A DNA stretch of 64,000 nucleotides from Nanobdellati archaeon (lineage in GTDB: Archaea; Nanobdellota; Nanobdellia; CSSed11-243R1). The notes below the pieces were generated by a model. That model made no database searches, was not told where the DNA came from, and saw nothing but the letters and a program-made list of their open reading frames with translations. A program made the translations under genes and the position numbers. How positions within the stretch are numbered: position 1 is the stretch's first letter; every line of letters starts with the position of its first letter. This document shows positions 40,997 through 58,681 of this stretch, in pieces. The stretch lies in contig JALTFL010000004.1 in the NCBI GenBank assembly GCA_027007025.1, positions 4,773 through 68,772 of the forward strand, written 5' to 3'.

Positions 40997-41185
40997 TTAA
41001 TATGATGACAACACAGCGCCAATTATTGTTATGATTACCCCCACAATAAGCACCAACAAATTTCCTGAAATACCCATAACTCCTGGAAGATTAATTCCTA
41101 AATCAATGCCCAACGGCAAAAATCCAGCCAATAAAGCACCTAACACTGCAATGATTATACCAATTATCAACACAATTATCTTCAT
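40997..41185 (-). CDS. Small hydrophobic membrane protein
   Basis: 62 aa, two hydrophobic helices rich in G/I/L/V. Confidence 0.35.
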   Translation of the reverse strand: MKIIVLIIGIIIAVLGALLAGFLPLGIDLGINLPGVMGISGNLLVLIVGVIITIIGAVLSSY

Positions 41186-41199
41186 AATATCACTAATTA

Positions 41200-41535: not shown

Positions 41536-41843
41536 CAGCTGTACTCCCTCCAAACATGCCCACACTTGGTGCATTTGTAAAATCTTGTTGGCGGTTCGTC
41601 GGCAGCTCTTGTCTGAACAACCCAAAAGTAAGCTTCATTGTTTCCACACTTCGGACATTTCGCCTTTGTCTTTGGATGAACCTCAGGATTTTCTTTGGCA
41701 ACCTTCACAGTCTTATCTTTTTTCTTAGACTGCTTTTCTTTTATCTTACCTTCCTTTCCTTTTTTGAGGGTGTAACCACAACTAGAACAAACCAACTTCC
41801 CATTCTTATTTATGATAATACTCCCACATTTAGGACAAAACAT
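41535..41843 (-). CDS. tfs: Transcription factor S (TFS)
   Basis: N-terminal zinc ribbon CPKCG...CSSCG; C-terminal TFIIS-type ribbon CPKCG..QTRAADEPPTRFYKCTKCG with acidic hairpin. Confidence 0.75.
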   Translation of the reverse strand: MFCPKCGSIIINKNGKLVCSSCGYTLKKGKEGKIKEKQSKKKDKTVKVAKENPEVHPKTKAKCPKCGNNEAYFWVVQTRAADEPPTRFYKCTKCGHVWREYS

Positions 41844-41878
41844 AAATTGTTAGAAAAGAATAAGGGTTAAAAACTTTT

Positions 41879-42478
41879 CTAAAAAGGAACTAATTTTGAA
41901 AAAATTACTTTCGGCCATCCCAAATAAGGTACTTTTGCGACCAATTTCCCGCGCACTTCCCTGTAGGGGATGTCCTTTTCAAGCGACATTATCATAGGAT
42001 TAGCATCACCTTTTGTTGTGTAAAAGTAATCATTCCCAATCTTTTTGACATACATAACTCTATGGATTATCTGTCCTCTAGAAGAATAAAAGAGAATTAC
42101 ATCGCCTACATGTATCTCACTCGCAGGTACTTTTTTAACTGCTATGACATCACCTACATTTAAACCGTTCAGATAAGGCCAATTTTCTACTTCGCTTTTA
42201 TTAAAACCATTGAACTCAAGCCAGTCATAAAAAGTATGGTCTGTCAAAGCGTCATGATGCATGGAACCTGATACCACAGCTGCAATATCAGAATATCCAG
42301 TTACAAGAAGAACCCCTGGAAACACAGCAAATTTCAATAGCACAAATGCAATAATTATAAAAGCAGTATAGCTTGCTACACTTTCTTCCTCCCAAAGAAA
42401 ATGCCAAACTTTTTTCAAAGATTTTTTTACGGAAAATGCTTTCTTCGGATCATGTATCTTTTCGCCTTCTTCTTCCAT
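41879..42478 (-). CDS. Signal peptidase I (archaeal Sec11 type)
   Basis: N-terminal TM anchor, SGSMHHDAL nucleophile-region motif, GDVI and GDAN boxes. Confidence 0.7.
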   Translation of the reverse strand: MEEEGEKIHDPKKAFSVKKSLKKVWHFLWEEESVASYTAFIIIAFVLLKFAVFPGVLLVTGYSDIAAVVSGSMHHDALTDHTFYDWLEFNGFNKSEVENWPYLNGLNVGDVIAVKKVPASEIHVGDVILFYSSRGQIIHRVMYVKKIGNDYFYTTKGDANPMIMSLEKDIPYREVRGKLVAKVPYLGWPKVIFSKLVPF

Positions 42479-42556
42479 TTCAAATCCTTCTTTATGACAT
42501 TAATTTTTGTTTAGCAATGGTTTATATTGTTTTCTAATAATATCAAAGAATAAAAA

Positions 42557-42829
42557 TTAAATCTTTTTTATTTCCGTCTCAAGCTTTGAAAGTTTCTTTT
42601 GAAGCCTTTCAATTGCTTTTTTTATTGCGGTTCTTGGCGTCCCTTTTGACATTGAAACTGTGAAAATTGCGTCCTTCACAAGGGGATGCTCAATTGTATA
42701 TCCCGCAAACTCCACAGACTCGTCATTAAAAAGCTCATTTCTAATAAGATTCAAAATTGTGTGCGTCTCGCCCTTTACCTTGAACTTAATTTTATTTTTT
42801 TCTTCTTCTAGTATTTCAATTTCAACCAT
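42557..42829 (-). CDS. rpoL: DNA-directed RNA polymerase subunit L (Rpb11 homologue)
   Basis: GETHTILNLIRNEL...VEFAGYTIEHPL motif; start at MVEIEIL. Confidence 0.8.
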   Translation of the reverse strand: MVEIEILEEEKNKIKFKVKGETHTILNLIRNELFNDESVEFAGYTIEHPLVKDAIFTVSMSKGTPRTAIKKAIERLQKKLSKLETEIKKI

Positions 42830-42899
42830 ACTCAAACCACGCATTTGGGCATTTTAAAAGTTTTCTATATCACTAATTATTTAAACCATTAGCAATATT

Positions 42900-43922
42900 T
42901 TGGTGTATATGAAAAAAGAATTCAAACACAAAAAGCGCAAACACGCAAAATCCAAGGAGAAAAAACGCGCTAAGAAGCAAGTTGAAAGAGAACCAGTTGT
43001 CATAAAAGTAACTCCATTCGGACTCTTCGCGTTTCACAAAAACAAGCTTGTCAAGAAAAGCATTTGGAAAGAAAACGAGGCGGCTGAGAATTTCTTCAAA
43101 AGAGATGAACTCATAAAAGAATTTAGGTCAAAAGTAGGCATACGCGCTAAATACGAAACTCATTCCATTTTTGGGAGTGAACTCGAGGATTTCGCAAAAA
43201 AACAAGGAATTAAATTCAACTTCCAGAAATTCATGATAGAATTTACAAAACTAAAGATAAAAGCAGGGCTCTCAAAGGATAGAATAATTATACAGGCAGT
43301 CAACACATTTGAAGAGCTCAACAAAATGATTAACATGATGTATGAAAAGCTAAGGGAATGGTACGGATTGTATTGGCCGGAAAGCGTCGAGAAAACAAAA
43401 ACCATTGATGAATTCCTGGAGATAGTCGGCAAAAGGCGCGACGGACAAAGCATGGGCTTTGAATTTGAGGAAGAAGACTTGGAGATAATAGGTGTTACCA
43501 GCGAAGAACTCAAATCCATGATTTCGCTCAAGGAGAAAATATCAAAATATATAGAAAAAGTGATGTCTAAAACAGCACCTAATATGACAAAAGTAGCGGG
43601 TGCTATAGTGGGTGCAAAGTTGATATCAATTGCTGGTGGTATGGAAAAACTCGCCGAAATGCCGTCATCAACAATACAGATACTCGGAGCGGAAAAGGCA
43701 CTATTTAGACATATAAGAAAGGGAACCAAACCACCAAAGTATGGAGTGCTTTTGTCCCACGAGCTCATGAAGAAAGTTAATCTTAAAAAGCGTGGAAAGC
43801 TGGCGCGCATATTGTCCGCCAAGATATCCATTGCCGCAAGAGTGGATTTTTACTCCAAAGGAAGAGATATTATCTGGAAAGGACTTTTGGATGACATAAA
43901 TGAAAAAATAAAAAGAATCTGA
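42900..43922 (+). CDS. nop5: C/D box sRNP protein Nop5 (Nop56/58 homologue)
   Basis: NOP domain GAEKALFRH...KPPKYG; lysine-rich N-terminus. Confidence 0.8.
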   Translation: MVYMKKEFKHKKRKHAKSKEKKRAKKQVEREPVVIKVTPFGLFAFHKNKLVKKSIWKENEAAENFFKRDELIKEFRSKVGIRAKYETHSIFGSELEDFAKKQGIKFNFQKFMIEFTKLKIKAGLSKDRIIIQAVNTFEELNKMINMMYEKLREWYGLYWPESVEKTKTIDEFLEIVGKRRDGQSMGFEFEEEDLEIIGVTSEELKSMISLKEKISKYIEKVMSKTAPNMTKVAGAIVGAKLISIAGGMEKLAEMPSSTIQILGAEKALFRHIRKGTKPPKYGVLLSHELMKKVNLKKRGKLARILSAKISIAARVDFYSKGRDIIWKGLLDDINEKIKRI

Positions 43923-43953
43923 TAGAAATCTTTTTAAATGATTGTAAAATCGT

Positions 43954-44598
43954 ATGGGTACTGGAGGTTATACCATGACAATACAGATAGATGAACAATC
44001 TAAGGAAAACGTGAAAAAAATCCTTGAAGGATTGGAAAAAGAAACAAAAATAATGTTCTTTGAAGGCGAAAACTGCCAAACATGCCCGGACGTAAAAGAA
44101 TTAATAACAATGGTTGAAGAATTGAGCAACGGCAAGCTGAAAGTCGAATACCATAACATAAGCGAAGACATCGCAAAAGAGATGAAAGTTGACAAGGCAC
44201 CAGCAATAGTGATGGGAAACGTAAGATATTATGGGATGCCATCAGGGCATGAATTTGGTCCTTTTGTCGAGATGATTGTTTTTGTGTCAAAGGGAGAAAA
44301 TATACTTCAAGACAGCACAATCAAAAAGATAAAGAAAATTGACAAGCCAGTAAGACTACAGGTATTTATAACACCAACATGTCCGTACTGTCCTAAGGCG
44401 GTAATAATAGCACACATGTTCGCAATCGCCAACAAGAACATAACTTCAGACATGGTAGAAGCAATTGAATTTCCAAAGGAATCCCAAAAGTATGGAGTAA
44501 TGGCTGTTCCAAAAATAGTCATAAACGAAAAGCACAGCTTTGAGGGAGCATATCCTGAGGAAGCTTTCGCGGACGAAGTGCTCAAGGCAGTCGAGTAA
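43954..44598 (+). CDS. Protein disulfide oxidoreductase with two thioredoxin-like units
   Basis: Two CxxC active sites (CQTC and CPYC) about 100 aa apart. Confidence 0.6.
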   Translation: MGTGGYTMTIQIDEQSKENVKKILEGLEKETKIMFFEGENCQTCPDVKELITMVEELSNGKLKVEYHNISEDIAKEMKVDKAPAIVMGNVRYYGMPSGHEFGPFVEMIVFVSKGENILQDSTIKKIKKIDKPVRLQVFITPTCPYCPKAVIIAHMFAIANKNITSDMVEAIEFPKESQKYGVMAVPKIVINEKHSFEGAYPEEAFADEVLKAVE

Positions 44599-44633
44599 AC
44601 ACTTTTTTAAACTTTTATTTTATTTCGTTTTCT

Positions 44634-45041
44634 ATGAATACAAGAAAAGTTTCAGTAGTCGTGTTTTACACAGAAGACAAAAAAATCCTTCTCCAAGACA
44701 GGAGGAACATGAGCAAATTTGGGGAAGAATGGGGATTCTTCGGCGGAGGAATTGAAGACGGGGAAACACCCGAAGACGCCCTTGTCAGGGAGATAAGAGA
44801 AGAGTTAACATATGACTTGCGCGACTTCATATTTATAGGAGATGCATTTGGAATAGTTGACAGCGAACACTCAGTCGAGGCGTACGTTTTCATATCCCCG
44901 CTAGACGACAAGCAGAAACATTTCAAACAAAAAGAAGGAGCAGGAATGAAACTTTTCACGATTGAGGAAGCGGAGAAACTGAAATTGATGCCAGGAATAG
45001 ACAAAGAGATTTTAAAGCTTGTTAAGGAGAAGTTAATATGA
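44634..45041 (+). CDS. NUDIX hydrolase
   Basis: Nudix box GGGIEDGETPEDALVREIREELT. Confidence 0.8.
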   Translation: MNTRKVSVVVFYTEDKKILLQDRRNMSKFGEEWGFFGGGIEDGETPEDALVREIREELTYDLRDFIFIGDAFGIVDSEHSVEAYVFISPLDDKQKHFKQKEGAGMKLFTIEEAEKLKLMPGIDKEILKLVKEKLI

Positions 45042-45712
45042 AAATCACAAAATCAAAATACGAAGGGATATTTCTAGTTGAAAATGGCAAGAAAAAAATT
45101 GCCACCATCAACTTGGTTCCGGGATACACGCCGTTCAGCGAACAAACAGTCAAGCAGGATGGAAAAGAATACAGGATTTGGAACCCTCACCGCTCGAAGT
45201 GGGCTGCGGCAATAATGAAGAACATAAAAAAATTCTCCCTAAAGAAAGGAGACAACGTATTGTACTTGGGCGCGGCATCCGGGCAGAGCGCGTCATACAT
45301 CTCAGACATAGTCGGGAAGGAAGGAAAAGTTTTTTGCATTGACATTGCGCCTCGCGTTATGAGGGACTTGATATTCGTCGCGGAGAAAAAGGAAAACATG
45401 GTTCCTATACTCGCCGACGCGACAAACCCAAAAGAGTACGAGTTCATCGGCAAGGTTGATTTCATATTCCAGGATGTTGCCATGCCAAACCAGGTTGAAA
45501 TCCTGAAAAGAAACGCACACTTTCTCAAAGATGGCGGGCAGATTCTGCTTGCCGTCAAATCAAGAAGTATAGACGTGACTGCAAAGCCCAGCGACATATT
45601 CGCAAAAGTCGAGCATCAGCTCGCGAAGGATTTTGACATAATCGACAAGAAAAGGCTCGAGCCGTATGAGATGGACCACATCGTATTTCTTTTAAGCAAA
45701 AAGGTTAAATAA
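45038..45712 (+). CDS. flpA: Fibrillarin (C/D box sRNP 2'-O-methyltransferase)
   Basis: SAM-binding LYLGAASGQSASYISD, fibrillarin-like length. Confidence 0.9.
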   Translation: MKITKSKYEGIFLVENGKKKIATINLVPGYTPFSEQTVKQDGKEYRIWNPHRSKWAAAIMKNIKKFSLKKGDNVLYLGAASGQSASYISDIVGKEGKVFCIDIAPRVMRDLIFVAEKKENMVPILADATNPKEYEFIGKVDFIFQDVAMPNQVEILKRNAHFLKDGGQILLAVKSRSIDVTAKPSDIFAKVEHQLAKDFDIIDKKRLEPYEMDHIVFLLSKKVK

Positions 45713-45742
45713 GGTGTCGCGTTCAAACAAAGAGGGGTAAGT

Positions 45743-46501
45743 ATGAATAAAAAAATATTTTTGGCAATTGCATTTGTAGCAGTCATATTTGTATTTGGAT
45801 GTGTAGGTGCAAAGAAGATTCCATTAAGAGAAAATAAGTCTAATATGGTGGTTGGTAACAACACTGCGAATGTTGTTGTAAATACACCTGTTGTCAAGGA
45901 TATAGATATAAATTATTTCACATTCCACCCGAACATACTAAAAATTTCTCCTGGAACAACCGTTGTCTGGAAGAACCAGGACGATGATGTTATTTATGAA
46001 GTCGTAAGCGGACACATTGAAGGATACAAGGAATTCCAAACAAATTTGTTTGACAGCGGAGAAATGGGTTATGGGAACAGCTTCAATTACACTTTTGACA
46101 AAGAAGGAGATTACCCATTCTACCTGAAAGGACATGTCAACATACAGGGGATTATAATTGTCGGAAATGGAAATGACACCCCAATTGAAATAAGAAGTCC
46201 TCATTTTGTCGGCTCGACGCCTCCACACAACAAAACACTTGATTCCCTCAATGAGATTTGGATAACATTCAACGCACAGATAAGCAATCAAAGCACAATC
46301 ACGGTGTATGATGTTAAAAACCACAAAATCGTTGAGCCAACTGAAAGCGGAGTTGATATATCCAATAACTTGAGGTTATTCGCAAAGTTTAATTCTCTTG
46401 AACCGTCCGAATACAAAGTGGAATATTATGAAGTAATAGGCAATGAGAGGGCGTATGGGCAGTTTTTCTTCGACATTGCGAAAAATTTAAAAACAGATTA
46501 G
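45743..46501 (+). CDS. Secreted lipobox protein with cupredoxin-like beta-sandwich region
   Basis: N-terminus AVIFVFGCVGAKK; TFHPNILKISPGTTVVW...GHVNIQGIIIV resembles a cupredoxin fold but has no Cys ligand. Confidence 0.4.
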   Translation: MNKKIFLAIAFVAVIFVFGCVGAKKIPLRENKSNMVVGNNTANVVVNTPVVKDIDINYFTFHPNILKISPGTTVVWKNQDDDVIYEVVSGHIEGYKEFQTNLFDSGEMGYGNSFNYTFDKEGDYPFYLKGHVNIQGIIIVGNGNDTPIEIRSPHFVGSTPPHNKTLDSLNEIWITFNAQISNQSTITVYDVKNHKIVEPTESGVDISNNLRLFAKFNSLEPSEYKVEYYEVIGNERAYGQFFFDIAKNLKTD

Positions 46502-46559
46502 TAATAATATAAGAAATATATTCTCATCACAACAAGCAATGAGAAAGGGGTGATTTAAA

Positions 46560-48179
46560 ATGGCAGACAACAATCAACAACCAATATTCATTTTACCGGA
46601 AGGGTATAAGAGACAGATGGGTAAAGACGCCCAGAGAACAAATATAATGGCCGCAAGGATTGTGGCGGAGACAATACGGACAACATTGGGTCCAAAAGGG
46701 ATGGACAAAATGCTTGTCGACACATTGGGAGACGTCGTAATAACAAACGACGGAGTCACAATCCTGAAAGAAATGGAAATAGAACATCCCGCCGCAAAGA
46801 TGATGGTGGAAATCGCCGAAACCCAAGAGGAAGAAGTCGGCGACGGAACCACAACGGCAGTAATTCTCGCGGGCGAGCTTTTGAAAAGGGCAGAGGACTT
46901 GCTTGACCAGGAGATTCACCCGACGATAATCGCGCACGGCTTTGAGATGGCTGCTGACAAGGCGGCAGAAATTCTAGAAAAAATTGCCATAAAGATAAAT
47001 CCAGATGAAACTGAAATGCTAGAAAAAATCGTAAAAACCGCGATGACTGGAAAAGGCTCGATTGCAATAAGAGAAAAACTCAACAAAATAATTGTGAGCG
47101 CTGTGAAGGAAGTCGCGGAAAAAACGGATGAAGGAATTGTGATTGATGTTGACAATATAAAACTCGAAAAGAAAACTGGTGGTGGAGTTAGTGACACAGA
47201 ATTAATCAAGGGGATCACAATCGACAAGGAGAGGGTCCACTCGGAAATGCCAAAGACCGTCAAGGATGCTAAGATACTTGTAATCGAAACACCGCTTGAG
47301 GCAAAAGAAACTGGCTCCGACACACAGATAAGAATAAACACACCCGAACAGCTGAAAGCATTCATAGCAGAAGAAGAGAATCAACTAAAGGATATGGTTG
47401 AGAAAATAAAATCTGTAGGTGCAAATGTTGTCTTCTGCCAAAAGGGCATTGATGACGTAGCTCAGCATTTTCTTGCGAAGGAGGGCATCTACGCGTGCAG
47501 AAGAGTCAAGCGCTCAGACATAGAAAAGCTCGCGAAGGCGACGGGTGCCAAGATTGTCTCGACTATTGATGATTTAAGCGAAAGCGACTTGGGATATGCG
47601 GGGCTCGTTGAGGAAAGAAAAATATCCGGAGAGGCAATGACATTTGTTAGAAACTGCAAGAATCCAAAGGCAGTTACAATTTTGATACGCGGTGGAACAG
47701 AGCATGTCGTCGACGAAGTTGAAAGGGCAATTCAGGACGCAATAGGAGACTTAGCATCGGTTTTAGAGAACAGCAAAATTGTTGCCGGCGGAGGAGCACC
47801 AGAGATTGAAGTCGCTAAGGAAATACGAAAATTCGCAGCATCTCTAGGAGGTAGAGAACAGCTTGCAGCGCAGGCATTCGCGGATGCCATGGAATCTATT
47901 CCAAGAACCCTTGCTGAGAACGCAGGGCTGGACCCAATAGATATGCTTGTCAATCTCAAAGCAGCCCACGAGGAAGGAAAATTGTGGGCAGGAATAGACA
48001 TCGCAAAGGGAGAAATAGTTGACATGCTTAATGGTGATGTTATTGAGCCACTGAAAGTAAAGACACAAGCAATAAAATCCGCAAGCGAAGTAGCGATAAT
48101 GATATTAAGAATTGACGATGTAATCGCAGCGGGCAAGTTAAGCAAGGATAATATGCCTCAAAGTATGCCCGGCATGTAA
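46560..48179 (+). CDS. ths: Thermosome subunit (group II chaperonin)
   Basis: [20 protein letters not shown] and ITNDGVTIL motifs. Confidence 0.95.
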
Positions 48180-48236
48180 TTTTCTTTTTTTCTATATTTT
48201 TCTAAAGGTTTTTATATTACATTTAATTTAAAATAA

Positions 48237-48638
48237 TTGGTGAGGCTGATGGCTAAAGAAAAAAAATACGAATTAATTCCAGCATCAACTTTAAACAAAT
48301 TCAAAAAAGAGTTTAAGGATATAGAAAGTGAAGAAGACAAGCTGGAGAGGATGGAAAGAAAAATAAATTTATTATCAAAAAATATCGAAGAATCAATGAA
48401 AGTTAATATCGAGCTCCAGGAAAAAGTCGCAGAGATGATGATATATATTTCTCAGCTTGTGGAAATAATGGGGAAACACCCTTCAAAAACAAAAAAAAGT
48501 GAGGATGAATTTCAAACTCTTGCCGAGCAGAACAAAGAGCTCACAGATACATTAAGAAATCTTGAAGAACAGCTCAAAAAAGAGGAGCTTAGAGCCTCTA
48601 TACGGAAAGCATTGAGCAAAGTGAGGGCGATTAAATGA
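48237..48638 (+). CDS. Coiled-coil protein
   Basis: 133 aa, heptad-like K/E-rich sequence; stop overlaps the next start (ATGA). Confidence 0.45.
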   Translation: MVRLMAKEKKYELIPASTLNKFKKEFKDIESEEDKLERMERKINLLSKNIEESMKVNIELQEKVAEMMIYISQLVEIMGKHPSKTKKSEDEFQTLAEQNKELTDTLRNLEEQLKKEELRASIRKALSKVRAIK

Positions 48639-48736
48639 AGAAAGGACTAACACCTCAGGTTGCCATGTTCCTCTTGGTGTCTCTCGTAGTAATAATCATT
48701 CTAATAGGAATTGTTTGGATGAAAGTGCTAAGTTAA
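48635..48736 (+). CDS. 33-aa hydrophobic peptide with pilin-like (class III signal-like) N-terminus
   Basis: MKKG|LTPQVAMFLLVSLVVIIILIGIVWMKVLS; start overlaps upstream stop and the next gene starts 2 nt after its stop; below the ORF-track size cutoff. Confidence 0.3.
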   Translation: MKKGLTPQVAMFLLVSLVVIIILIGIVWMKVLS

Positions 48737-48737
48737 A

Positions 48738-49982
48738 ATGGAAGAAACAAATGTTCAAGAAATTGAAACTTATCCTTTGGTTGTGTTTAATTACGGTGGG
48801 AATGAAATAAAATTCGCGGAAGCCACGATATGTAATAATTCCAATGAATTAAAATATTGTGTAAATGAAATCGAACTTGAGGAACATGAAAGCGATATTT
48901 ACTATGAAATCCTAAAACGAATAAAAAAAATTGACAAGGAAAAAAACCTAAGAAAGTTAAGTCAACAAGATGCGTTCAGGTTCATAGACTATAAAATAAA
49001 AGAAACTTGTCATGAGATGAGAGAAGATATTTCCACTCAAGAGAAGACAAGGATAAAATATTTTCTATATAAAAATTACTTTGGATTCGGAGAAATTGAG
49101 CCATTGTTTTATGACAAGGACGTAAAATATATTTTCTGCGAGCGTCCTGGATTGCCGATTTACATTTTTCACAAAAATCCAAGATATGGATTTATGAAAA
49201 CAAACATCGTACTGAGGAGCATAAGAGAATACAAACTGATATCTGAAAATCTCAAATTGAAATCTAAAAAGCTGAGAGAATCTCCTGATTTCTTTGGCAT
49301 ATTGGAGGACAAACAAGTGGTTGAAGTGAGTGATTCTCATAGAGAATTTAGCATAACCCGCTTCTCAAAAATGCCGACATCCCCAAGAGATATGGTAAAA
49401 CTAAAACTAATTCGGAGGGATGTTTTGGTGTATCTATATAGGATAATCAAAAATAGAGGTTCTGTGCTTATCATTGGAGGAAACTCATCCCAAAGAATTC
49501 AATTAGCTAATTCATTGGCTCTCCTTACCGACAAAAAACTGAAAGCAGTCATCTTTGAAAAAACACCCAGTATCATCCTGCCACACAATGACGCATACTA
49601 CAAAGTGCTTCCGCTTTATGAAAAAAAACATAAACACGTGATAAAAGAATACTTGAGGAAAAATCCAGAGCTAGTAATCTCAGCAGAGATTGAAACAAAC
49701 AAGCAAACAATAAAAAACATAAAACATAAGTGTCAAACATTCATAACTATTGAAGCAAACGATTTGGACAATGCAATTAAAATACTTAACAATGAAGTAC
49801 CTGCACCGTGGATATCCTACATAGATGTCATAGTAAAAATAAAGGAATCAATTGGATGGCCACGTGTAGACGAAATTTATGAAATTACAGCATATGACGC
49901 CCAGTCAAAAATGCTTATGATATCTCCAATTTTTTACAACAATGTTTTGAGAAAAAGCAAATTACTTAGCCAGCAAAGTTAA
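48738..49982 (+). CDS. Secretion-ATPase-like protein (FlaI/VirB11/TadA-like layout) with degenerate P-loop
   Basis: VLIIGGNSSQRIQLANSLALL...KAVIFEKTPSIILPHND occupies the position and spacing of Walker A plus the IEDT box, but the GxxGSGKT residues are replaced. Confidence 0.4.
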   Translation: MEETNVQEIETYPLVVFNYGGNEIKFAEATICNNSNELKYCVNEIELEEHESDIYYEILKRIKKIDKEKNLRKLSQQDAFRFIDYKIKETCHEMREDISTQEKTRIKYFLYKNYFGFGEIEPLFYDKDVKYIFCERPGLPIYIFHKNPRYGFMKTNIVLRSIREYKLISENLKLKSKKLRESPDFFGILEDKQVVEVSDSHREFSITRFSKMPTSPRDMVKLKLIRRDVLVYLYRIIKNRGSVLIIGGNSSQRIQLANSLALLTDKKLKAVIFEKTPSIILPHNDAYYKVLPLYEKKHKHVIKEYLRKNPELVISAEIETNKQTIKNIKHKCQTFITIEANDLDNAIKILNNEVPAPWISYIDVIVKIKESIGWPRVDEIYEITAYDAQSKMLMISPIFYNNVLRKSKLLSQQS

Positions 49983-51152
49983 TTCGCCGTCAGTCAACCC
50001 AAATTCTTCCTTGATATGTTTCTTCTTGACTTTCTTTGTCTTTATCAAAATCTTTAACAGGGGAACATAATCCTTCAAAAAGACGCTTGATGAAACATGA
50101 AATTTGGGGGCTATCTTTCTGGATGTTGATTTCATAGAACTTCTTAAATTTTTGCTCTGCGACAACTTAAGGAGCCTTGATGGAAAAGCATACCTCACAA
50201 ATCTCTTGCTCTTGACTGGGGCATTTATATTTATACCTGCAGTGGACAAAATTTTGGCATATTTGTAAAATCCGTAATACTGCCTACGCCTTATCCTGCC
50301 TAAAAATACATCGCTTCTGGAAACATTTTCATAAGCACCAGCAATAGTTATTGGATTTGTGTACTCATTGCAGATGTTCTCAGAAACCCATAGTATACCA
50401 GTATTCAAATCTATGTCCGCTACATCAAACACAATAAGCACGTCCATCGAAAATGGAGACTTAAATATTTTCTGCATTGCTGAGAAGACATTCTTTTTTA
50501 TATTCCTGTCGCACAAAAAGACATTGTCCTTTGTAAGTTTATTGTCAATTGCAATCGATGCTTCCAAATCATTTATTGCTGCCCTTAAATCTCCGTCTGA
50601 AGATTTAGCGAGCAATTCAACTGCGCTATAATCATACTCAATTCCTTCTGAGTTAAGAATTGAAATTAACTTAGCCATAATCTCCTTGTAAGTCAGTTTT
50701 CTGAACTCAACCTTTTCACAATACGGACGTAAGAATTTAAACTTTTGATTCCAAAAATCAAGCCCAATAACAACAACAGGCACACCAGACTTTCGTATAA
50801 GCTCTGCTACTTTAGCAATAGAACGTGAATTTAGAGAATCTATTCCATCTATCAAAACCAATCGTTTTTTCCCAAAGATACTGGCGGTGTTTATAGAGTT
50901 ACTTATTAAGGAATCCATTTTTTCTGTATCTCTCAAATCGTCCGCCGTAAGTTGTATTACTTCATAATCCATTTCTTTTATTATCACACGAATTGAAGCC
51001 GTCTTGCCGACGCCCGGCTGTCCAAATATAAACAAACCCTTTTTCTTTTTATGTGACTCTAAAAAATTGATAATTTTAGATATAGCCAGCTTTTGCCCTA
51101 CTATCTCATCTATCTTCTTTGGAGAATATTTAATCAATAAATTTGTCATCAT
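49962..51152 (-). CDS. rfcL: Replication factor C large subunit
   Basis: Walker A FGQPGVGKT, AAA+ clamp-loader layout, lysine-rich C-terminus. Confidence 0.8.
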   Translation of the reverse strand: MMTNLLIKYSPKKIDEIVGQKLAISKIINFLESHKKKKGLFIFGQPGVGKTASIRVIIKEMDYEVIQLTADDLRDTEKMDSLISNSINTASIFGKKRLVLIDGIDSLNSRSIAKVAELIRKSGVPVVVIGLDFWNQKFKFLRPYCEKVEFRKLTYKEIMAKLISILNSEGIEYDYSAVELLAKSSDGDLRAAINDLEASIAIDNKLTKDNVFLCDRNIKKNVFSAMQKIFKSPFSMDVLIVFDVADIDLNTGILWVSENICNEYTNPITIAGAYENVSRSDVFLGRIRRRQYYGFYKYAKILSTAGININAPVKSKRFVRYAFPSRLLKLSQSKNLRSSMKSTSRKIAPKFHVSSSVFLKDYVPLLKILIKTKKVKKKHIKEEFGLTDGELTLLAK

Positions 51153-51766
51153 ACCAAACCGTTTTTCTTAAGAATTTTCATAAGTCTGTCCATATCAAGC
51201 TTTCCGGAGCCTTTTATCATTTCTAAATCCGAAATATCGTTTTCGTCGTCGTTGTTCATTTTTGAAAAGTAAATTTCTTCCAAAGGCGCGACTCTAAAAA
51301 ATCCTTTCCCACTCTTTCCTCTTCCGAAGTAACCCCATATTTCCTTGACATCGGAATCAAAAATGCTTTTTGAAAATACCATCTCTTTATCATTATAATT
51401 CAATGTATAAGATTTTCCATCAAATTTTCCTAAGACAATGTTTATCCTTATATCTCCACTTGGTGATGATTTTTTAGATTTTATAACATCTTGAGTTATG
51501 GAATAAATTGTGTAATTCATCTTGAAAAGAAGTTCAAGAATTTTGTTTTTCGCAGAAGCGTCCGAAATTATAATCCCCGTTGGAACGTGTTTTGTTTGTA
51601 TCCCTCTGGCAAGAAGGGCATATTCACCAAAGACACAGTATTTTATCTTCAGGGTATCAAATAAATTCCCCATTTTAGTCATTTCTTCTAGACATGCCCT
51701 TTCCAACTTTTGCTTATCCACAAACATTTCAATCAACCGCCGCGAATTGAGCAAGAAGAGACTCAA
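51149..51766 (-). CDS. Hypothetical protein inserted between rfcS and rfcL
   Basis: 205 aa; overlaps the rfcS stop and the rfcL start; no recognisable motif. Confidence 0.4.
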   Translation of the reverse strand: MSLFLLNSRRLIEMFVDKQKLERACLEEMTKMGNLFDTLKIKYCVFGEYALLARGIQTKHVPTGIIISDASAKNKILELLFKMNYTIYSITQDVIKSKKSSPSGDIRINIVLGKFDGKSYTLNYNDKEMVFSKSIFDSDVKEIWGYFGRGKSGKGFFRVAPLEEIYFSKMNNDDENDISDLEMIKGSGKLDMDRLMKILKKNGLV

Positions 51767-52679
51767 TTTGAAGATACTCGTCAGAACCTTCCACTATCCT
51801 AAACTCATATTCCCCAATCTTGTCTATCAATTTTATTTTCTTCCTATCATCAATATCCATATCCCAAACAATTTTGTTTATCAACTTTATGACATCCAAA
51901 CCGCTTAATCCATATTTTAACATAACATCAAGCATCCTGTCCTTCGCTTTTTTTATGTCTCCTTTGACCGCAGTCTCAAGAATCTCCTTCATCTCTTTTG
52001 GCTTTGCTATCCCTGCAACCGAATAAACAGATTCTTCAGAAATATTTTTGTCCAAAGCCGAACAGCTTTGAAGTATGTTTGTAACTTTTCTCAAATCACC
52101 ATCGCTTGAGTCAATTACAGCTTGAATTGCCTTGTCATCAATTTTTAGTTTTTCCTCTTTGGCAATCCTATTTATGTAATTCTTGACATCTTCCTCACTC
52201 AAAGGTTTAAATCTGAAAACAACACATCTTGATTGGATTGGAAGGATAATTTTTGATGAATAATTACAATCCAAAATGAATCTACAGGTTGTAGTATATT
52301 TTTCCATCATCCTTCTGAGAGCGTGCTGAGCTTCGCTTGTGAGGGCGTCGGCTTCGTCAAGAAGGATAATTTTAAAAGGTGCATCAATGGGCTTTGTTCT
52401 CGCAAAGTCCTTTACTTTTGTGCGTATCATATCAATACCCCTCTCATCACTCGCGTTCATCTCAAGGAAGTTTGAGTGCCAATTGTCTCCAAAAAGCTCC
52501 TTAGCCATAGCCATTGCACACGTGGTTTTTCCAACTCCTGCTGGTCCAGCGAAAAGAAGGTGTGGCACATTCTTGTTTTTTACAAAAGCAGAAAGCCTAT
52601 TCACAATCTCCTTCTGTCCAACCACGTCATCTAGTTTGGAAGGGCGGTATTTTTCTGTCCAAATTTCAAGCTTATCCAT
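51729..52679 (-). CDS. rfcS: Replication factor C small subunit
   Basis: FAGPAGVGKTT, LLDEADALT, SRC motif QSRCVVF. Confidence 0.9.
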   Translation of the reverse strand: MDKLEIWTEKYRPSKLDDVVGQKEIVNRLSAFVKNKNVPHLLFAGPAGVGKTTCAMAMAKELFGDNWHSNFLEMNASDERGIDMIRTKVKDFARTKPIDAPFKIILLDEADALTSEAQHALRRMMEKYTTTCRFILDCNYSSKIILPIQSRCVVFRFKPLSEEDVKNYINRIAKEEKLKIDDKAIQAVIDSSDGDLRKVTNILQSCSALDKNISEESVYSVAGIAKPKEMKEILETAVKGDIKKAKDRMLDVMLKYGLSGLDVIKLINKIVWDMDIDDRKKIKLIDKIGEYEFRIVEGSDEYLQIESLLAQFAAVD

Positions 52680-52773
52680 GATAATTAATCAAAAAGACAC
52701 TACATTAAAACTTTTGCGGAAAGGTTAAAAACTAAGGGAAATCTTTATAGCATCTGAGCATTTTGGTGATTTT

Positions 52774-55700
52774 ATGAAAAAGTATAGCCCCAAGGAAACA
52801 GAAGAGGAAATACTTAAATTTTGGACTAAAAATAAGATATACAAAAAGCAGAAAGAATTGGGCAAGGATGGTCCTAAATTCTACTGGCTCTGCGGTCCGC
52901 CTTATACTTCGGGAAAATTCCACGTAGGGCACTTCTGGAACTATGCTTCGCTAAAAGACCCGCTGTTTAGATACAAAAGAAAACAAGGTTTTGACGTTTG
53001 GGACAGAGGTGGATGGGACATGCACGGACTACCCACTTCTAGAAAAGTCATGGCAAAGCTCGGCATAAAAACAAAAGACGAAATCGAAAGCTTTGGAGTA
53101 GGAAAATTCGTAAAAGAATGCGAAAATTTCTCAAAAGAAACAATGGAAAAGATGACAAAAGATTACGTGAGATGGGGTGTCTGGTTCGACCACAAAAATG
53201 CATACATGCCTATCACAAACGACTTCATGGAAGGCGTATGGTGGGGCATTAAAAAGGCATGGGAAAATGGATTTTTGTATGAAGGCAAGAAAGTTATGGC
53301 ATGGTGCCCTGAAAGCGAAACAGTCGCGGCAAAACACGAGCTGGAGTACAAAGAGGTTACTGATGATTCGATATTTTTGAAATTCAAAATCAAAGGGGAG
53401 GAAAAAACATTTCTCGTTATATGGACGACAACGCCGTGGACAATACCATTCAATCTTGGCGTGATGGCAAATCCGGATATAACCTATACTTATGCAAGGG
53501 CGGGCGACGAAACATGGATTGTCGCAAAGGAACTTCTTGAAAAAGTTTCAGAAGTTGCAAACATCAAATTGGAGCCCATCAAAGAAATCCAAGGAAAGGA
53601 ACTTGAGAGTATTGAATATGAACCTTTCCTAAAAGATGATATCCCAAAAATCAAGGAGTTACAAAAAGAAAACAAATGGGCATTCAAAGTTCTCCTATCA
53701 AAAGAATACGTCGAAACTACTTCGGGAACAGGACTCGTGCACTGTGCTCCAGGATGTGGTCCTGAAGATTATGAAGTGGGACGGAAATATAAACTCCCTG
53801 CCTTCAACGAAGTTGACTCAAAAGGATATTTTCCTAAAGATATGGGTGTTTTCAGCGGATGGAGAGCTAGATTTGATGACAAGAAATTTATACAATTCTT
53901 CAAAGAGAAAGGGAACCTTGTCGCCGTCCAAAAATACAAACATGAGTATCCTTTCCATGAGCGCTCAAAGTCACCAGTTATATTCAGGACAACAAAGCAG
54001 TGGTTCTTCGCAGTGGAAAAAATAAAAGACAAACTTTTGAAGTGGAACAAAAAAGTGAAATGGATTCCAAAGTGGGCAGGTGAAAAAACATTTGACAATT
54101 GGATTGCAAACCTCAAGGATATAAGCATAACAAGGCAGAGATATTGGGGGACACCTATTCCCATATGGAAATGCGAAAAATGTGATAACTATACTGTTGT
54201 TGGCTCGCTTGACGAATTGAAAAAACTCTCAGGAAAGAAGCCAAAAAGCATGCACAAACCATGGATAGATGAAATTACATTCAAATGCGACAAGTGTGGA
54301 GGCACAATGAAAAGGATTCCTGACATCGGCGATGTTTGGTTAGACGCAGGATGCACATCATGGATTTCATTGTATTTCCCGCAAAGAAAGGACTTAATGG
54401 AAAAGTATTGGCCCGCAGATTTCATACTCGAAGCAAAAGACCAGATAAGAGGGTGGTTTAACTTGCTCTTTGATACAGCAGGTGTCACGGGACTTGGAAT
54501 TCCTTTCTTAAATTCTTACATGACTGGTTGGGTAAACGATGCCAAGGGAAGAAAAATGTCCAAGAGTCTTGGCAACATCATCGACCCGTATGAAGTCGTC
54601 GATAAGTTTGGAACGGACACAGTCAGGTATTATATGATGGGTGCGGCGCAGCCAGGAGTTGACATGAACTACAACCACCGCGACATAGAAGTTAAGTTCA
54701 GAAACATTTCAATCCTTTGGAATATTCACAACTACTTAATTGACTTTGTTAATACAAATAAGTTGAAACTGCCTAAAAATCCAAAACTTGGAATTGAAGA
54801 AAAATACATCCTTTCTAGGACGCACAGCACAATAAAGAAAGTTACTGAGTTGTATGACAATTACAAATTAAACGAAGTGCCCATTGAAATCGAAAAATTA
54901 TTCCTTGACTTAAGCAGAGTATATATCAAATCCATTAGGGACAAAGCAAGCAGCGGAACAAAAGAGGAAAAAGAAGCAGTCGCATTTGCGATTTACGAAA
55001 GCTTAATCGCTGTTTTAAACATGTTTGGAACTGTGGCGCCTTTCGTTTGCGACAAAATGTATCAAAATCTTAAGCCCGTTTTTAATCTTAAACAAAAGTC
55101 AATCCAGCTTTTCAAGTGGCCAGAGGCAAACGAAGAATTAATAGATGAAACTATTGAAAGAAGCGTTGAAACTGCTAACGAGATAATAACAGGCATTCTC
55201 TCAATAAGAGACAAAAAGGGAATTGGCGTGAGATGGCCGCTAAGCAAAGCTCTTGTTTACTCCAATGACGAGCTGAACTTGGACAAAATAAAAAGTATTA
55301 TCCTTAATCAAACAAATGTTAAAGAGATAAAACAAATCAAACGCTCGCCGGAGTGGATAAAACTTCAAATTAAGGTGCGACATGGCAACCTCGCCAAGAA
55401 ATTCAAGGGACTTGAGCCAAAAATAGTCGGCACGCTGATTCAAATGAGCCCGGAATCCGTTAAGTCAAAACTAGATAAGGAAGGTAAGTTCGAAATTGAT
55501 GTCGACGGGGAAAGATATGAGGTGAACTCCAATGATGTATATATAGAGGAAATAATGCCTGAAGAGTGGGGCAGCGTCAATATGACAAATGGGAAGGTAT
55601 ATCTCAATTTATCCCAAAACAACGAACTTCTTGCGGAAGGATTCGCCCGTGAAATAGCGAGAAGAATACAGGATTTAAGAAAGGAGCTAAAACTCAGCAA

Positions 55701-55905
55701 AACCGACAAGGCTAGAGCTACAGTAATCATCTCAGATGATAAACTAAGGAGTAAAATAAAGCCATATCTGTCAAAATTGGAAAATAAAACAGGAACTTCT
55801 ATAAGTGTTATTGCTGAAGGCACGCCAAATGAAAAAGTTACAAAAGAGATTAAAATCAAAGGAAAGCACATAATCGTTGGATTATCCCCTAAAAAAATTT
55901 TATAA
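52774..55905 (+). CDS. ileS: Class I aminoacyl-tRNA synthetase, most likely isoleucyl-tRNA synthetase
   Basis: HIGH-type FHVGH, GWDMHGLP, KMSKSLGN; 1043 aa is typical of archaeal IleRS; LeuRS not fully excluded. Confidence 0.6.
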   Translation: MKKYSPKETEEEILKFWTKNKIYKKQKELGKDGPKFYWLCGPPYTSGKFHVGHFWNYASLKDPLFRYKRKQGFDVWDRGGWDMHGLPTSRKVMAKLGIKTKDEIESFGVGKFVKECENFSKETMEKMTKDYVRWGVWFDHKNAYMPITNDFMEGVWWGIKKAWENGFLYEGKKVMAWCPESETVAAKHELEYKEVTDDSIFLKFKIKGEEKTFLVIWTTTPWTIPFNLGVMANPDITYTYARAGDETWIVAKELLEKVSEVANIKLEPIKEIQGKELESIEYEPFLKDDIPKIKELQKENKWAFKVLLSKEYVETTSGTGLVHCAPGCGPEDYEVGRKYKLPAFNEVDSKGYFPKDMGVFSGWRARFDDKKFIQFFKEKGNLVAVQKYKHEYPFHERSKSPVIFRTTKQWFFAVEKIKDKLLKWNKKVKWIPKWAGEKTFDNWIANLKDISITRQRYWGTPIPIWKCEKCDNYTVVGSLDELKKLSGKKPKSMHKPWIDEITFKCDKCGGTMKRIPDIGDVWLDAGCTSWISLYFPQRKDLMEKYWPADFILEAKDQIRGWFNLLFDTAGVTGLGIPFLNSYMTGWVNDAKGRKMSKSLGNIIDPYEVVDKFGTDTVRYYMMGAAQPGVDMNYNHRDIEVKFRNISILWNIHNYLIDFVNTNKLKLPKNPKLGIEEKYILSRTHSTIKKVTELYDNYKLNEVPIEIEKLFLDLSRVYIKSIRDKASSGTKEEKEAVAFAIYESLIAVLNMFGTVAPFVCDKMYQNLKPVFNLKQKSIQLFKWPEANEELIDETIERSVETANEIITGILSIRDKKGIGVRWPLSKALVYSNDELNLDKIKSIILNQTNVKEIKQIKRSPEWIKLQIKVRHGNLAKKFKGLEPKIVGTLIQMSPESVKSKLDKEGKFEIDVDGERYEVNSNDVYIEEIMPEEWGSVNMTNGKVYLNLSQNNELLAEGFAREIARRIQDLRKELKLSKTDKARATVIISDDKLRSKIKPYLSKLENKTGTSISVIAEGTPNEKVTKEIKIKGKHIIVGLSPKKIL

Positions 55906-55948
55906 ACTTTACCCTTCTTTATAAAGCAACGAATTTTCTGGTGATAAG

Positions 55949-56602
55949 ATGATTAAGACAATAAAAAAGAAAAAAACAGCTTCTAAAAAGAGAACTGCTA
56001 AAAAAACTGTAAAAAAAACAACTAAAAAAGCAGTCAAAACCGCATCTAAAAAATCAACAAAATCCAAAAAACCGACATATACAATCCAAAATGTTGTGGC
56101 TTCAGCAAGCTTACACCATGATATCCCTCTTGAAAAGGTAACAATCAAACTCCCAAACACGGAATATAATCCCGAACAGTTTCCGGGATTAGTATTGCGA
56201 TTGATGAAAGGAAAAACGGCACTTATATTCTCATCCGGAAAGATAGTGTGCACCGGAGCGAAGTCAGAAACAGAATTGAAAGAAACTGTAAAGATGATTA
56301 TAAAAGAACTAAAAAAAGTAAACATAATAATACGCAGGAAACCGGACATTACAATCCAAAATATGGTTGCGTCAGGCGACATAAATATGACATTGAACCT
56401 CAACAAGCTCGCATTCAAGCTTGAAAACGCAGAGTATGAACCTGAACAATTTCCAGGACTTGTTTACAAAGTCCCAAATTCACACATAACTTTCTTGCTG
56501 TTCGGCACAGGAAAAATAGTCTGTACCGGCGCTAAAAATGAGAAGGAAATAAAAGACGCAATTCATAAATTGGTACTAACACTCAAGAAGATAAGTAAAT
56601 AA
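55949..56602 (+). CDS. tbp: TATA-box-binding protein with about 40-aa lysine-rich N-terminal extension
   Basis: Two TBP direct repeats (IQNVVASASL...GKIVCTGAKSE and IQNMVASGDI...GKIVCTGAKNE) preceded by a K/T/A-rich tail. Confidence 0.85.
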   Translation: MIKTIKKKKTASKKRTAKKTVKKTTKKAVKTASKKSTKSKKPTYTIQNVVASASLHHDIPLEKVTIKLPNTEYNPEQFPGLVLRLMKGKTALIFSSGKIVCTGAKSETELKETVKMIIKELKKVNIIIRRKPDITIQNMVASGDINMTLNLNKLAFKLENAEYEPEQFPGLVYKVPNSHITFLLFGTGKIVCTGAKNEKEIKDAIHKLVLTLKKISK

Positions 56603-56632
56603 TGTTCTCTTTGAGATAAACTATAAGGGGTA

Positions 56633-58681
56633 TTGCTCATGAACGAGAAAGCAGCTAGTTTTGAAGATGGGGTAATCGAAAAATTCGAAGAATTCATTAA
56701 CAAAAGGTATCTTTCCAATTTAAGCACAGCCCTAAACACGGGCATGCATTCTCTGATTGTGGATTTTACCGAACTTGACAAGTTCGACCCCGAGCTCACA
56801 GATTTTCTCATTGAACAACCCGAAGATGCTATAAAATTATTCCAGTCAGCACTCAAAAGAATCGAAATGGTTCCTGAAGATGAAGAATTAAACATCAGGT
56901 TCTCAAACATTCCCGAGAGCAAAAGAATTCTCATAAGAGATATACGAAGCAAACATATAGATAAAATGGTTTCAATTGAAGGACTCATAAGACAGGCATC
57001 AGATGTTAGGCCTGTCTCAAGAATTATAACCTTTGAATGTCCTGCATGCGGAACTAAAATTGATATGCCCCAATCCGGAACGACAATCAAAGAACCAACA
57101 GTTTGTGTGAATTGTGGAAGACGTGGAAAGTTCAAATTAGTCGATAAAACATTAGTTGACACACAAAGAATTGTTTTAGAAGAATCACCTGAACAACTTG
57201 CAAGCGATGCTCAGCCAAGAAGAATGAGCATTTTCTTAACTGACGATTTGGTGGACCCAAAAATTGAAAAGAAAACTGTCCCAGGTAGTAGAGTTATAAT
57301 TACGGGTATCGTAAAAGAAATACCAATTGTGGATAGGGGAACAAAAAGCACGAGATTTGATTTGATAATAAATGCAAACAACATTGAGCCTTCCGAAAAA
57401 GAATTTGACGAGATAGAACTCACACCAGAAGACAAAAAAATAATAGAAGACATGTCAAAGGATCCCTTGATAAATAAAAAATTGATAAACTCAATAGCCC
57501 CAAGCATTTATGGATATGAAACCATCAAAGAAGCAATTGTTCTGCAATTGTTTGGTGGGATAAGGACAAAAAGGCCTGACGAAACGAATGTTAGAGGAGA
57601 TATACACATTTTATTAGTCGGAGACCCTGGTGTAGCTAAGTCACAATTGTTGAAATATGTCTCAGCTGTGGCACCAAAGGCTAGATACGTATCAGGAAAA
57701 GGCGCAAGCGGCGCGGGATTAACTGCATCCGTAGTCAAAGATGAATTCTTAAAAGGATGGTCCCTTGAAGCAGGAGCTATTGTCCTCGCGAACAAAGGTA
57801 TTTGCTGTATAGACGAAATTGACAAGATGGAAAAGGAAGATAGGGTTGCAATGCACGAAGCGATGGAACAACAAACAATCACAATCGCAAAGGCAAATAT
57901 ACACTCAACCCTAAGAGCAGAAACGACAATTCTCGCGGCGGCAAACCCAAAGTTCGGAAGGTTCGACCCTTACAGGCCCATCGCGGACCAAATTGACATG
58001 CCACCAACCTTGATTTCAAGATTTGATTTAATATTCCCAATTAGAGATATCCCTGACAAAGATAGAGACAGCAAACTTGCAGAACATATACTTTCATCAT
58101 TCAGAAAACCCGAGAAATTAGTTCCGGAAATATCCCCTGAATTAATGAGAAAATATATCGCATACGCGAAGAGGTACATACATCCAAAACTTTCTAAAGA
58201 AGCATCTGATGAAATAAAATCCTTTTTCGTTGGACTCCGTTCTCAAAAGAGTAGAGGTGATGAGGAACTTAAACCAATCCCAATATCGGCAAGACAACTT
58301 GAAGCTATGGTAAGATTATCACAGGCATCCGCCAAAATTAGACTCAGTAATATAGTGGAAGGAAAAGATGCGAGAAGAGGAATTAGAATTATGAAATACT
58401 GTCTAAACAAAGTGGGGATGGATACAGAGACAGGAGAATTAGATATTGATAGAATTGCTACAGGTATATCCACTTCCCAAAGAAATAAGATAATGACTGT
58501 GAGAAACATAATCAGAGAATTAGAGTCGAGATACGGCGCCAATGTTCCTCTAGCAGATGTCATCGATGCGGCAAAATCAAAAGGAATAGATGAATCCCGT
58601 ATAGAAGAGATTATTGAAAAGATGAAAAGAAGCGGCGAACTTTTCGAACCAAAGCACGGCGTAATAAGACGCATGCCCTAA
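56633..58681 (+). CDS. mcm: MCM replicative helicase
   Basis: Zinc finger CPACG...CVNCG, Walker A GDPGVAKSQLL, Walker B CIDEIDKM. Confidence 0.9.
   Translation: MLMNEKAASFEDGVIEKFEEFINKRYLSNLSTALNTGMHSLIVDFTELDKFDPELTDFLIEQPEDAIKLFQSALKRIEMVPEDEELNIRFSNIPESKRILIRDIRSKHIDKMVSIEGLIRQASDVRPVSRIITFECPACGTKIDMPQSGTTIKEPTVCVNCGRRGKFKLVDKTLVDTQRIVLEESPEQLASDAQPRRMSIFLTDDLVDPKIEKKTVPGSRVIITGIVKEIPIVDRGTKSTRFDLIINANNIEPSEKEFDEIELTPEDKKIIEDMSKDPLINKKLINSIAPSIYGYETIKEAIVLQLFGGIRTKRPDETNVRGDIHILLVGDPGVAKSQLLKYVSAVAPKARYVSGKGASGAGLTASVVKDEFLKGWSLEAGAIVLANKGICCIDEIDKMEKEDRVAMHEAMEQQTITIAKANIHSTLRAETTILAAANPKFGRFDPYRPIADQIDMPPTLISRFDLIFPIRDIPDKDRDSKLAEHILSSFRKPEKLVPEISPELMRKYIAYAKRYIHPKLSKEASDEIKSFFVGLRSQKSRGDEELKPIPISARQLEAMVRLSQASAKIRLSNIVEGKDARRGIRIMKYCLNKVGMDTETGELDIDRIATGISTSQRNKIMTVRNIIRELESRYGANVPLADVIDAAKSKGIDESRIEEIIEKMKRSGELFEPKHGVIRRMP

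Follow-up and report, generated by a model that had tools for sequence, protein, structure and literature searches.

A probable pseudo-ATPase module of pilus-machinery descent and its conserved micro-protein in one lineage of DPANN archaea

What is encoded by a locus that keeps a homologue of the archaeal filament ATPases beside a pilin-like helix and has no platform protein next to them? The question is raised by three open reading frames (ORFs) in a stretch of 64,000 nucleotides from a Nanobdellati archaeon (the window; contig JALTFL010000004.1 of assembly GCA_027007025.1, positions 4,773 to 68,772), a host that is a small DPANN archaeon, low in GC at about 38%. Positions are numbered here along the forward strand of the window. 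The original prediction placed a coiled-coil protein, a 33-aa hydrophobic peptide and a 414-aa ATPase-like protein at 48237–49982, and all three ORFs are present there on the forward strand. The translational coupling proposed for them stands at the first junction, where the ATG of the peptide shares nucleotides with the TGA stop of the coiled-coil ORF (ATGA), and is corrected at the second, where the gap given as 2 nt is in fact 1 nt (TAA-A-ATG); at its 3′ end the 414-aa ORF overlaps the convergent gene for the large subunit of RFC (RFC-L) by 21 nt. The evidence set out below identifies the locus as a lineage-restricted pseudo-ATPase module that is derived from pilus machinery and includes a conserved micro-protein.

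The 414-aa protein is, by the similarity of its sequence, a true homologue of the archaeal secretion ATPases. Searched against PDB sequences with phmmer, it matched afGspE (2OAP) at E = 2.6e-23 over residues 25–396 and FlaI (4II7) at E = 1e-8, which bears out the FlaI/VirB11/TadA-type layout originally claimed for it. Structure prediction, which had been proposed as a check, gave an AlphaFold2 model (built with six homologues) with a mean pLDDT of 76.6 and a single weak stretch at residues 171–211; the model has the two-domain secretion-ATPase fold, with an N-terminal domain and a RecA-like C-terminal domain. Ancestry and predicted fold place the protein in the secretion-ATPase superfamily, whose defining catalytic motifs it lacks and whose curated thresholds it does not reach. 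The NCBIfam FlaI/ArlI equivalog NF058587 matched at E = 1.3e-15 and 57.2 bits, below its cutoff of 550; Pfam T2SSE (PF00437) gave no match to the 414-aa protein at E ≤ 1, and the sister proteins P0010 and P0014 scored 24.6 and 18.0 bits against the PF00437 cutoff of 24.9. Precomputed matches to Pfam PF27713 ("UCP018868", uncharacterised) exist for the relatives P0003–P0005 and P0010 and at loci L021 and L022, are weak or faint for P0012, P0014 and L019, and are not recorded for the window protein. A literature search for UCP018868, PF27713 and PIRSF018868 found nothing, and a cluster look-up of the family gave no name beyond "flagellar protein FlaI." The protein is also short. At the C-terminus, canonical relatives continue past the end of the profile for about 60 residues that are missing here (80 in the comparison with afGspE), and at the N-terminus there is no counterpart of the extensions of 90–250 residues carried by the nearest canonical DPANN ATPases.

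The motifs on which catalysis depends in this family are degraded. An exhaustive search with the family profile retrieves 2317 relatives, mostly canonical ATPases; about 140 of the best 150 are canonical, and nearly all keep GxxxxGKT, IEDT, GE and the His. From canonical to window sequence, the alignment reads GETASGKT to GGNSSQRI, IEDTRE to FEKTPS, IVGEVRG to ISAEIET and TLHAGD to TIEAND, so that, compared with afGspE (PDB 2OAP) and FlaI/ArlI (PDB 4II7, 4IHQ), the window protein has Arg for the Walker A Lys and has lost the Asp of the Asp box and the His of the His box. The replacement of the Walker A Lys and Thr that had been read from GGNSSQR was confirmed (Lys to Arg, Thr to Ile), and alignment of IFEKTP with IEDTRE likewise places the FEKT box at the IEDT site, as proposed. 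The six closest homologues share the loss: all have Arg at the Walker A Lys and lack both the Asp and the His, and four of the six have also lost the Walker B Glu. Arg occupies this position in P0001–P0009 and P0021 and is invariant in the sub-branch of the window, where R253 is one of 81 positions invariant among the six homologues. The predicted pseudo-ATPase is supported by this loss across the catalytic motifs, and the 414-aa protein is probably unable to hydrolyse ATP. The constancy of the Arg that stands in for Lys argues that the pocket still matters, and nucleotide or some other anion may still be bound there.

The decay took place inside the lineage, because sister branches retain GxxxxGKT. 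When 101 matches of nearly full length were placed in a neighbour-joining tree, about a dozen "short" proteins (360–447 aa) formed an exclusive clade that grades from intact to absent P-loops. GxxxSGKT and the Walker B Glu are still present in P0010, P0012 and the proteins of L021 and L022 (in two of them also the ED of the Asp box); P0014 and L019 have a partly degraded P-loop, G....NKT; the window branch has Arg for Lys; and in P0130 the P-loop is gone entirely. Every member of the clade has lost the His, and the Asp-box Glu is invariant throughout. The family is rare, with about a dozen clusters at 50% identity among 1.84 billion representatives; scans of 185,579 species genomes and of JGI metagenomes returned two loci and one locus, respectively, all already known, and a word-indexed search with wider alignment added no family members. 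Degraded motifs also occur in FlaI-family proteins outside the short clade (P0044, P0060, P0062, P0081, and P0123), as GEKSSGRK, GDSQSRKT or GDAGTGRT or by loss of the His box; archaeal filament ATPases therefore seem to have been inactivated several times.

Might the 414-aa protein still be an active NTPase with an unusual Arg P-loop, so that the module would be a minimal motor for secretion or assembly that still works? The invariance of the Arg within the sub-branch, the conservation of the P-loop residues around it, the clade-wide Asp-box Glu, the Walker B Glu kept in the window protein and the canonical GxxxSGKT of the sister branches would fit an active site. Four motifs have nevertheless been struck together: Walker A (Lys to Arg and Thr to Ile), the Asp-box Asp, the His-box His (in all members) and the Walker B Glu (in most close relatives); and the module offers no platform protein to which hydrolysis could be coupled. 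In P-loop NTPases, replacement of the Walker A Lys by Arg normally abolishes hydrolysis. The loss of four motifs makes residual ATPase activity much less likely, and we regard a working motor as very improbable.

Loss of catalysis has not been accompanied by loss of the genes. The arrangement was compared in 11 loci (the window, L001, L004, L010, L011, L014, which is partial, L015, L017, L019, L021, and L022), and all 11 encode, in the same order, a coiled-coil protein of 129–168 aa, a peptide of 33–34 aa and the ATPase-like protein. The three-ORF set, the length of the peptide and the overlaps of starts and stops persist though protein identity falls to 26–33%, and recurrence in all 11 related loci puts the arrangement beyond chance. 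The start of the peptide overlaps or abuts the coiled-coil stop (an ATGA or GTGA overlap; TGATG in L021), and the ATPase-like ORF begins 1–4 nt after the peptide stop or overlaps it. A homologue search with the coiled-coil protein returned 20 proteins of 130–175 aa, all unnamed, none of them fused to the peptide, solitary or equipped with a hydrophobic tail; three new genomic contexts that came from this search each contain the full module (3/3). A programmed frameshift fusing coiled coil and peptide was considered and rejected, as there is no slippery heptamer and the coiled-coil homologues (20/20) end at one point.

Both genes of the module for which rates were obtained are constrained. Between the window and its closest partner, L002, the ATPase-like gene has 0.198 nonsynonymous differences per nonsynonymous site (pN) and 0.728 synonymous differences per synonymous site (pS), the pN of the neighbouring RFC-L gene being 0.19; for the peptide, four comparisons gave a pN of 0.2–0.3 and a pS of about 0.7. 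The genes of the module are under purifying selection, with dN/dS clearly well below 1 and no precise value, because synonymous sites are saturated. These figures bear on whether the genes are no more than the decaying, functionless residue of a pilus system that has been lost, in which case the small ORF would be a mere spacer. Such an origin would suit the decayed motifs, the rarity of the family and the fact that the ATPase-like gene evolves fastest in its block; it is hard to square with intact, full-length ORFs, with a peptide length and overlaps held constant in 11/11 loci, with a pN far below pS in both the ATPase-like gene and the peptide, and with the 81 invariant positions. The genomes of DPANN archaea are strongly reduced, and dead genes would be expected to vanish from them. 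Purifying selection makes simple gene decay much less likely, and this is the least probable of the explanations that we considered.

The constant partner of the ATPase-like protein is the peptide, whose consensus is M-(0–3 residues)-K-[KR]-G-[LIM]-T-P followed by about 20 hydrophobic residues, a W and 4–6 further residues; T6, P7, L13, and W28 are invariant in the 11 loci. The N-terminus is basic, and hydrophobicity reaches 3.4 in a 19-residue Kyte–Doolittle window. Conservation of the 33-codon ORF in relatives, on which the original prediction had staked its case, was found in 11/11 loci, as 33–34 codons. The FlaFind 1.2 pattern for class III signals, [KRDE][GA][ALIFQMVED][ILMVTAS] followed by a hydrophobic helix (PMC4307647), is present in 10 of the 11 peptides (KGLT at residues 3–6 in the window; KSALTP of L011 fails) and in 1.9% of peptide shuffles, in agreement with the prepilin-like signal first noticed here. 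The absence of a globular domain was also seen correctly, in that the ORF ends 4–6 residues past the transmembrane helix in all 11 loci and leaves room for no soluble domain. Cleavage, if it occurs, would fall after Gly4 and leave 26–30 residues across the orthologues. The smallest known pilins are the Flp pilins of bacteria. With archaeal type IV pilins and other class III signal proteins the peptide shares a short basic N-region, Gly or Ala at −1 and a hydrophobic helix of about 22 residues; it differs in having no domain after the helix, no match to a pilin profile and no peptidase or platform gene nearby. Pilin and archaellin profiles (Pfam, NCBIfam, E ≤ 10) matched none of eight peptides, a weak negative, as HMMER filters drop most weak matches. 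The resemblance to a class III signal is supported, and membership of the pilins is not established, because there is no profile match, the helix is not followed by any domain and the window ORFs scanned include no A24 peptidase.

Gene annotation has largely passed the peptide over. The ORF is called as a gene in the window; in seven of the related loci it is uncalled and appears as an "intergenic gap" of about 100 nt (L001, 7898–7999; L004, 5241–5342; L010, 546–647; L011, 1187–1291; L015, 7900–8004; L017, 7903–8004; and L019, 2019–2123), so that a conserved micro-protein has been overlooked systematically.

The first protein of the module has no transmembrane segment and no signal peptide, and is modelled by AlphaFold2 (pLDDT 79) as two long helices, residues 12–76 and 84–128. 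Two conserved blocks match the two helices (with the motifs PAS..L, VNI.LQ.K and LAEQN.EL..TL..LE..LKK....I.KAL), and the linker between them is variable and often rich in Pro and Glu. ATG 48249 is the better of its two candidate starts, with GGTGAGG immediately 5′, and was chosen by the gene callers. Profile searches of Pfam, NCBIfam, PHROGs and PDB with the coiled-coil protein and the peptide returned only sub-threshold coiled-coil or transmembrane noise.

Does the locus form part of a filament system? A canonical archaeal type IV filament locus consists of an ATPase, a platform protein, a pilin and a class III peptidase (preprint 10.64898/2026.04.22.720090). The platform gene (FlaJ/TadC, PF00482) adjoins the ATPase-like gene in 0/11 loci, and flaH, flaJ, flaF/G, and archaellin genes are absent from the neighbourhood in the window and the 10 other loci, where thermosome, RFC, IleRS, TBP, and MCM genes stand instead; in afGspE and FlaI systems, by contrast, platform protein, pilins or archaellins adjoin. 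Negative results for a platform, a peptidase and a paralogue refer to the window. Within it, phmmer with the 414-aa protein against all ORFs found no second FlaI-like gene, and no platform protein or A24 peptidase was found in Pfam scans of the large ORFs tested and in precomputed annotation of 38–60 kb (the ORFs at 8.8–14.4 kb, RNA-polymerase-like by position, and at 60.0–61.0 kb were outside the Pfam scans). The scans yielded genes of translation, transcription and replication, a serpin, a leucyl aminopeptidase and others. The earlier statement that no platform protein is adjacent therefore holds in 11/11 loci and among the scanned window ORFs, and the locus, having no platform, does not qualify as a type IV filament system.

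The main rival explanation is that a canonical type IV filament system is encoded elsewhere in the genome and that the module assists or regulates it, with the dead ATPase competing with, capping or co-assembling with an active paralogue on the platform of that system and the peptide serving as a minimal minor or priming pilin that is cleaved by the prepilin peptidase of the genome. The FlaFind pattern in 10/11 peptides and the closest canonical relatives of the 414-aa protein, which are archaeal filament ATPases, point that way, and DPANN archaea do have type IV filament systems (preprint 10.64898/2026.04.22.720090). As the module has no platform, any filament function must borrow one, yet in none of the 11 loci does it adjoin pilin, platform or peptidase genes, and no pilin profile matches. 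A mature peptide of 26–30 residues would consist of little but the helix, without a soluble domain, and filaments assembled from it would expose a hydrophobic surface. We consider an accessory role possible and on balance unlikely.

A further set of genes within the window was considered in this connection. At 26833–34349 on the forward strand lie six consecutive genes (419, 544, 517, 396, 285, and 313 aa) with no Pfam matches, the first four also without NCBIfam matches, in the lowest-GC stretch of the window (28.5–36%). The first encodes a class III-like signal (..MAKKA/QYAATIILIGMAALFV), and three others encode signal peptides ending in lipobox-like FGC or LGC; the island looks like a set of fast-evolving cell-surface proteins. 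It was rejected as the missing pilus locus, having no family matches, no ATPase and no platform.

The reading that we prefer, and to which we give an even chance of being correct, is that the translationally coupled trio encodes a non-hydrolysing, membrane-anchored complex whose ancestor was the motor of a type IV filament. The 414-aa protein would descend, in shortened form, from the assembly ATPase of such a filament or of an archaellum, having kept the two-domain fold and lost the hydrolysis of ATP. The peptide would sit in the membrane, whether it stays whole as an anchor or is cut after Gly4 as a pilin-like helix, and the two-helix coiled coil would be a cytoplasmic adaptor or scaffold bridging the peptide and a ring of the ATPase homologue, as FlaX/ArlX does for FlaI; coiled coil and peptide together would amount to a tail-anchored coiled coil divided over two polypeptides. 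We infer that the three products assemble in fixed proportions at the cytoplasmic face of the membrane, where together they would serve not as a motor but as a static scaffold or a nucleotide-state switch. Its cellular role could be in the organisation of the envelope or of contact with the host in this DPANN lineage.

In logic, the nearest analogues of such a complex are two proteins of the archaellum, FlaX as a scaffold and FlaH as a partner that does not hydrolyse. The crenarchaeal FlaX/ArlX is a coiled-coil protein, inserted monotopically in the membrane, that forms rings and makes contact with FlaI in both of its halves (PMC4307647). The module similarly sets a coiled coil and one transmembrane helix beside a FlaI-type gene, and a role as scaffold or anchor is plausible; the likeness is architectural only, as in the module the two are separate polypeptides and the transmembrane helix is encoded second. 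FlaH/ArlH and other non-hydrolysing RecA-type partners resemble the 414-aa protein in combining a nucleotide-binding fold with the want of a competent site, presumably in a modulating or structural role (PMC4307647). In the clade 4D systems (arCOG05558), a FlaI-family ATPase without its C-terminal domain is encoded in a minimal, pilin-less locus and a change of function is suspected (Makarova et al., 2016, PMC4858521). Compared by description only, these systems are like the module in the truncated ATPase and the absence of pilins, and unlike it in belonging to Thermoproteales, in having a partner protein with 4–5 transmembrane segments and in that no catalytic degradation is described (PMC4858521). 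Neither the module nor an inactivated ATPase family is described in two surveys of archaeal filaments (PMC4858521; preprint 10.64898/2026.04.22.720090).

Several observations weigh against a membrane-anchored complex of this origin. No similarity was detected between the coiled-coil protein and any accessory family of the archaellum or pilus, the only hit being a sub-threshold match to FlaC_arch (E = 0.089). The ATPase-like protein evolves fastest in the syntenic block, at 26–47% identity against 74–88% for the thermosome and 56–74% for IleRS (in the more distant genomes 26–27%, 74–77%, and 56%, respectively), which is consistent with relaxed constraint; the pattern of rates also fits a protein that has been released from catalytic constraint and retained for another reason. 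A partner platform, peptidase or active ATPase may lie beyond the 64-kb window, which covers only part of a 528-kb contig. Finally, synteny spans fairly close organisms, and position alone says little about function.

The last point applies to the setting of the module, which lies between a thermosome gene and the convergent RFC-L gene wherever the contig reaches far enough. Genes in the neighbourhood encode PCNA, TFS, RpoL, Nop56/58, fibrillarin, a cupredoxin, the thermosome, the large and small subunits of RFC, IleRS, TBP, and MCM. A functional link of the module with RFC or the thermosome was rejected, as the whole array from PCNA to MCM is syntenic while the thermosomes are 74–88% identical; because the organisms are not very distant, synteny on this scale with replication and transcription genes reflects shared ancestry. 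The array is collinear in the window (about 40200–60000), L001, L015, and L017, where the thermosomes are only 74–88% identical, in the order PCNA, TFS, RpoL, Nop56/58, fibrillarin, thermosome, module, RFC-L, a 192-aa gene, RFC-S, IleRS, TBP, MCM, an unusually stable "information-processing" gene order for the lineage. The 192-aa gene (51149–51727, reverse strand), between the genes for the large and small subunits of RFC, matches no Pfam or NCBIfam family and is kept in place in all relatives (188–193 aa) at 72% identity in L001 and 45–54% in the more distant loci, better conserved than RFC-L.

The features of the module are collected in Table 1. Upstream of it, the T-rich tract and the TATA-like element part the module from the thermosome gene, which suggests that it has a promoter of its own.

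Table 1. Features of the module and of the sequence just upstream, numbered along the window.
Feature	Position	Strand	Remarks
T-rich tract	48180–48193	+	After the thermosome stop; putative terminator, read from sequence
TATA-like A/T-rich element, TTTTTATATTA	48209–48219	+	Putative own promoter of the module, read from sequence
Coiled-coil ORF	48249–48638	+	129 aa from ATG; 133 aa from TTG 48237
33-aa single-pass membrane peptide, MKKG/LTPQVAMFLLVSLVVIIILIGIVWMKVLS	48635–48736	+	N-terminus like a class III signal; called as a gene here
414-aa homologue of FlaI/GspE-type secretion ATPases	48738–49982	+	N-terminal domain and RecA-like C-terminal domain; catalytic motifs degraded; no C-terminal helical extension
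Degenerate Walker A, GGNSSQRI	49476–49499	+	Replaces GxxxxGK[ST]; aligned to GETASGKT of afGspE
Degenerate Asp box, IFEKTP	49551–49568	+	Replaces [ST]IEDT[PR]; aligned to IEDTRE; Glu kept, Asp lost
Walker B region, ELVISAEIET	49668–49697	+	Canonical DYIIVGEVRG; Glu kept here
His box, TFITIEAN	49737–49760	+	Canonical ..T[ILMV]HA..; His lost in every member of the clade

Other features of the window are recorded for completeness. A full-length serpin gene (16505–17749, reverse strand; Pfam Serpin, E = 1.3e-124) encodes a protein that coincidentally also has 414 aa, and beside it lies a gene for a 476-aa protein with DUF11/Ig-like repeats (18458–19888, reverse strand). The 426-aa ORF at 37255–38535 on the reverse strand has weak matches to the small (residues 93–242) and the large (295–389) subunit of primase, which suggests a fused PriS–PriL, and is followed by a GINS gene (36626–37258). 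The sole Rfam match in the window is a tRNA (16181–16294, reverse strand) that covers 114 nt for a 71-position model and probably contains an intron.

What may the module mean for the lineage that carries it? It combines a pilin-like helix with a recognisable homologue of the ATPase, has given up both platform and chemistry, and is still under selection in very small genomes. A bolder account, which we offer tentatively and think doubtful, is that a DPANN lineage turned a filament motor into a vertically inherited membrane complex independent of hydrolysis, in which a split "tail-anchored" coiled coil would hold a ring of dead FlaI-like subunits and its membrane part, at 26–30 residues after cleavage, would be shorter than any pilin-like subunit known, with a role in the envelope or in host contact and not in filament assembly; the graded loss of the P-loop in sister branches would then capture the transition from enzyme to pseudo-enzyme. 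Only a narrow lineage, as yet uncultivated, carries the module, whose function is one that we infer. It would be a natural pseudo-enzyme among the secretion ATPases, and its P-loop-bearing relatives make the transition from enzyme to scaffold directly comparable. A 33-codon gene that annotation has missed in several related genomes proves to be a constant partner of the system, and the module is a candidate for a part in the poorly understood biology of the cell surface and of host contact in DPANN archaea.

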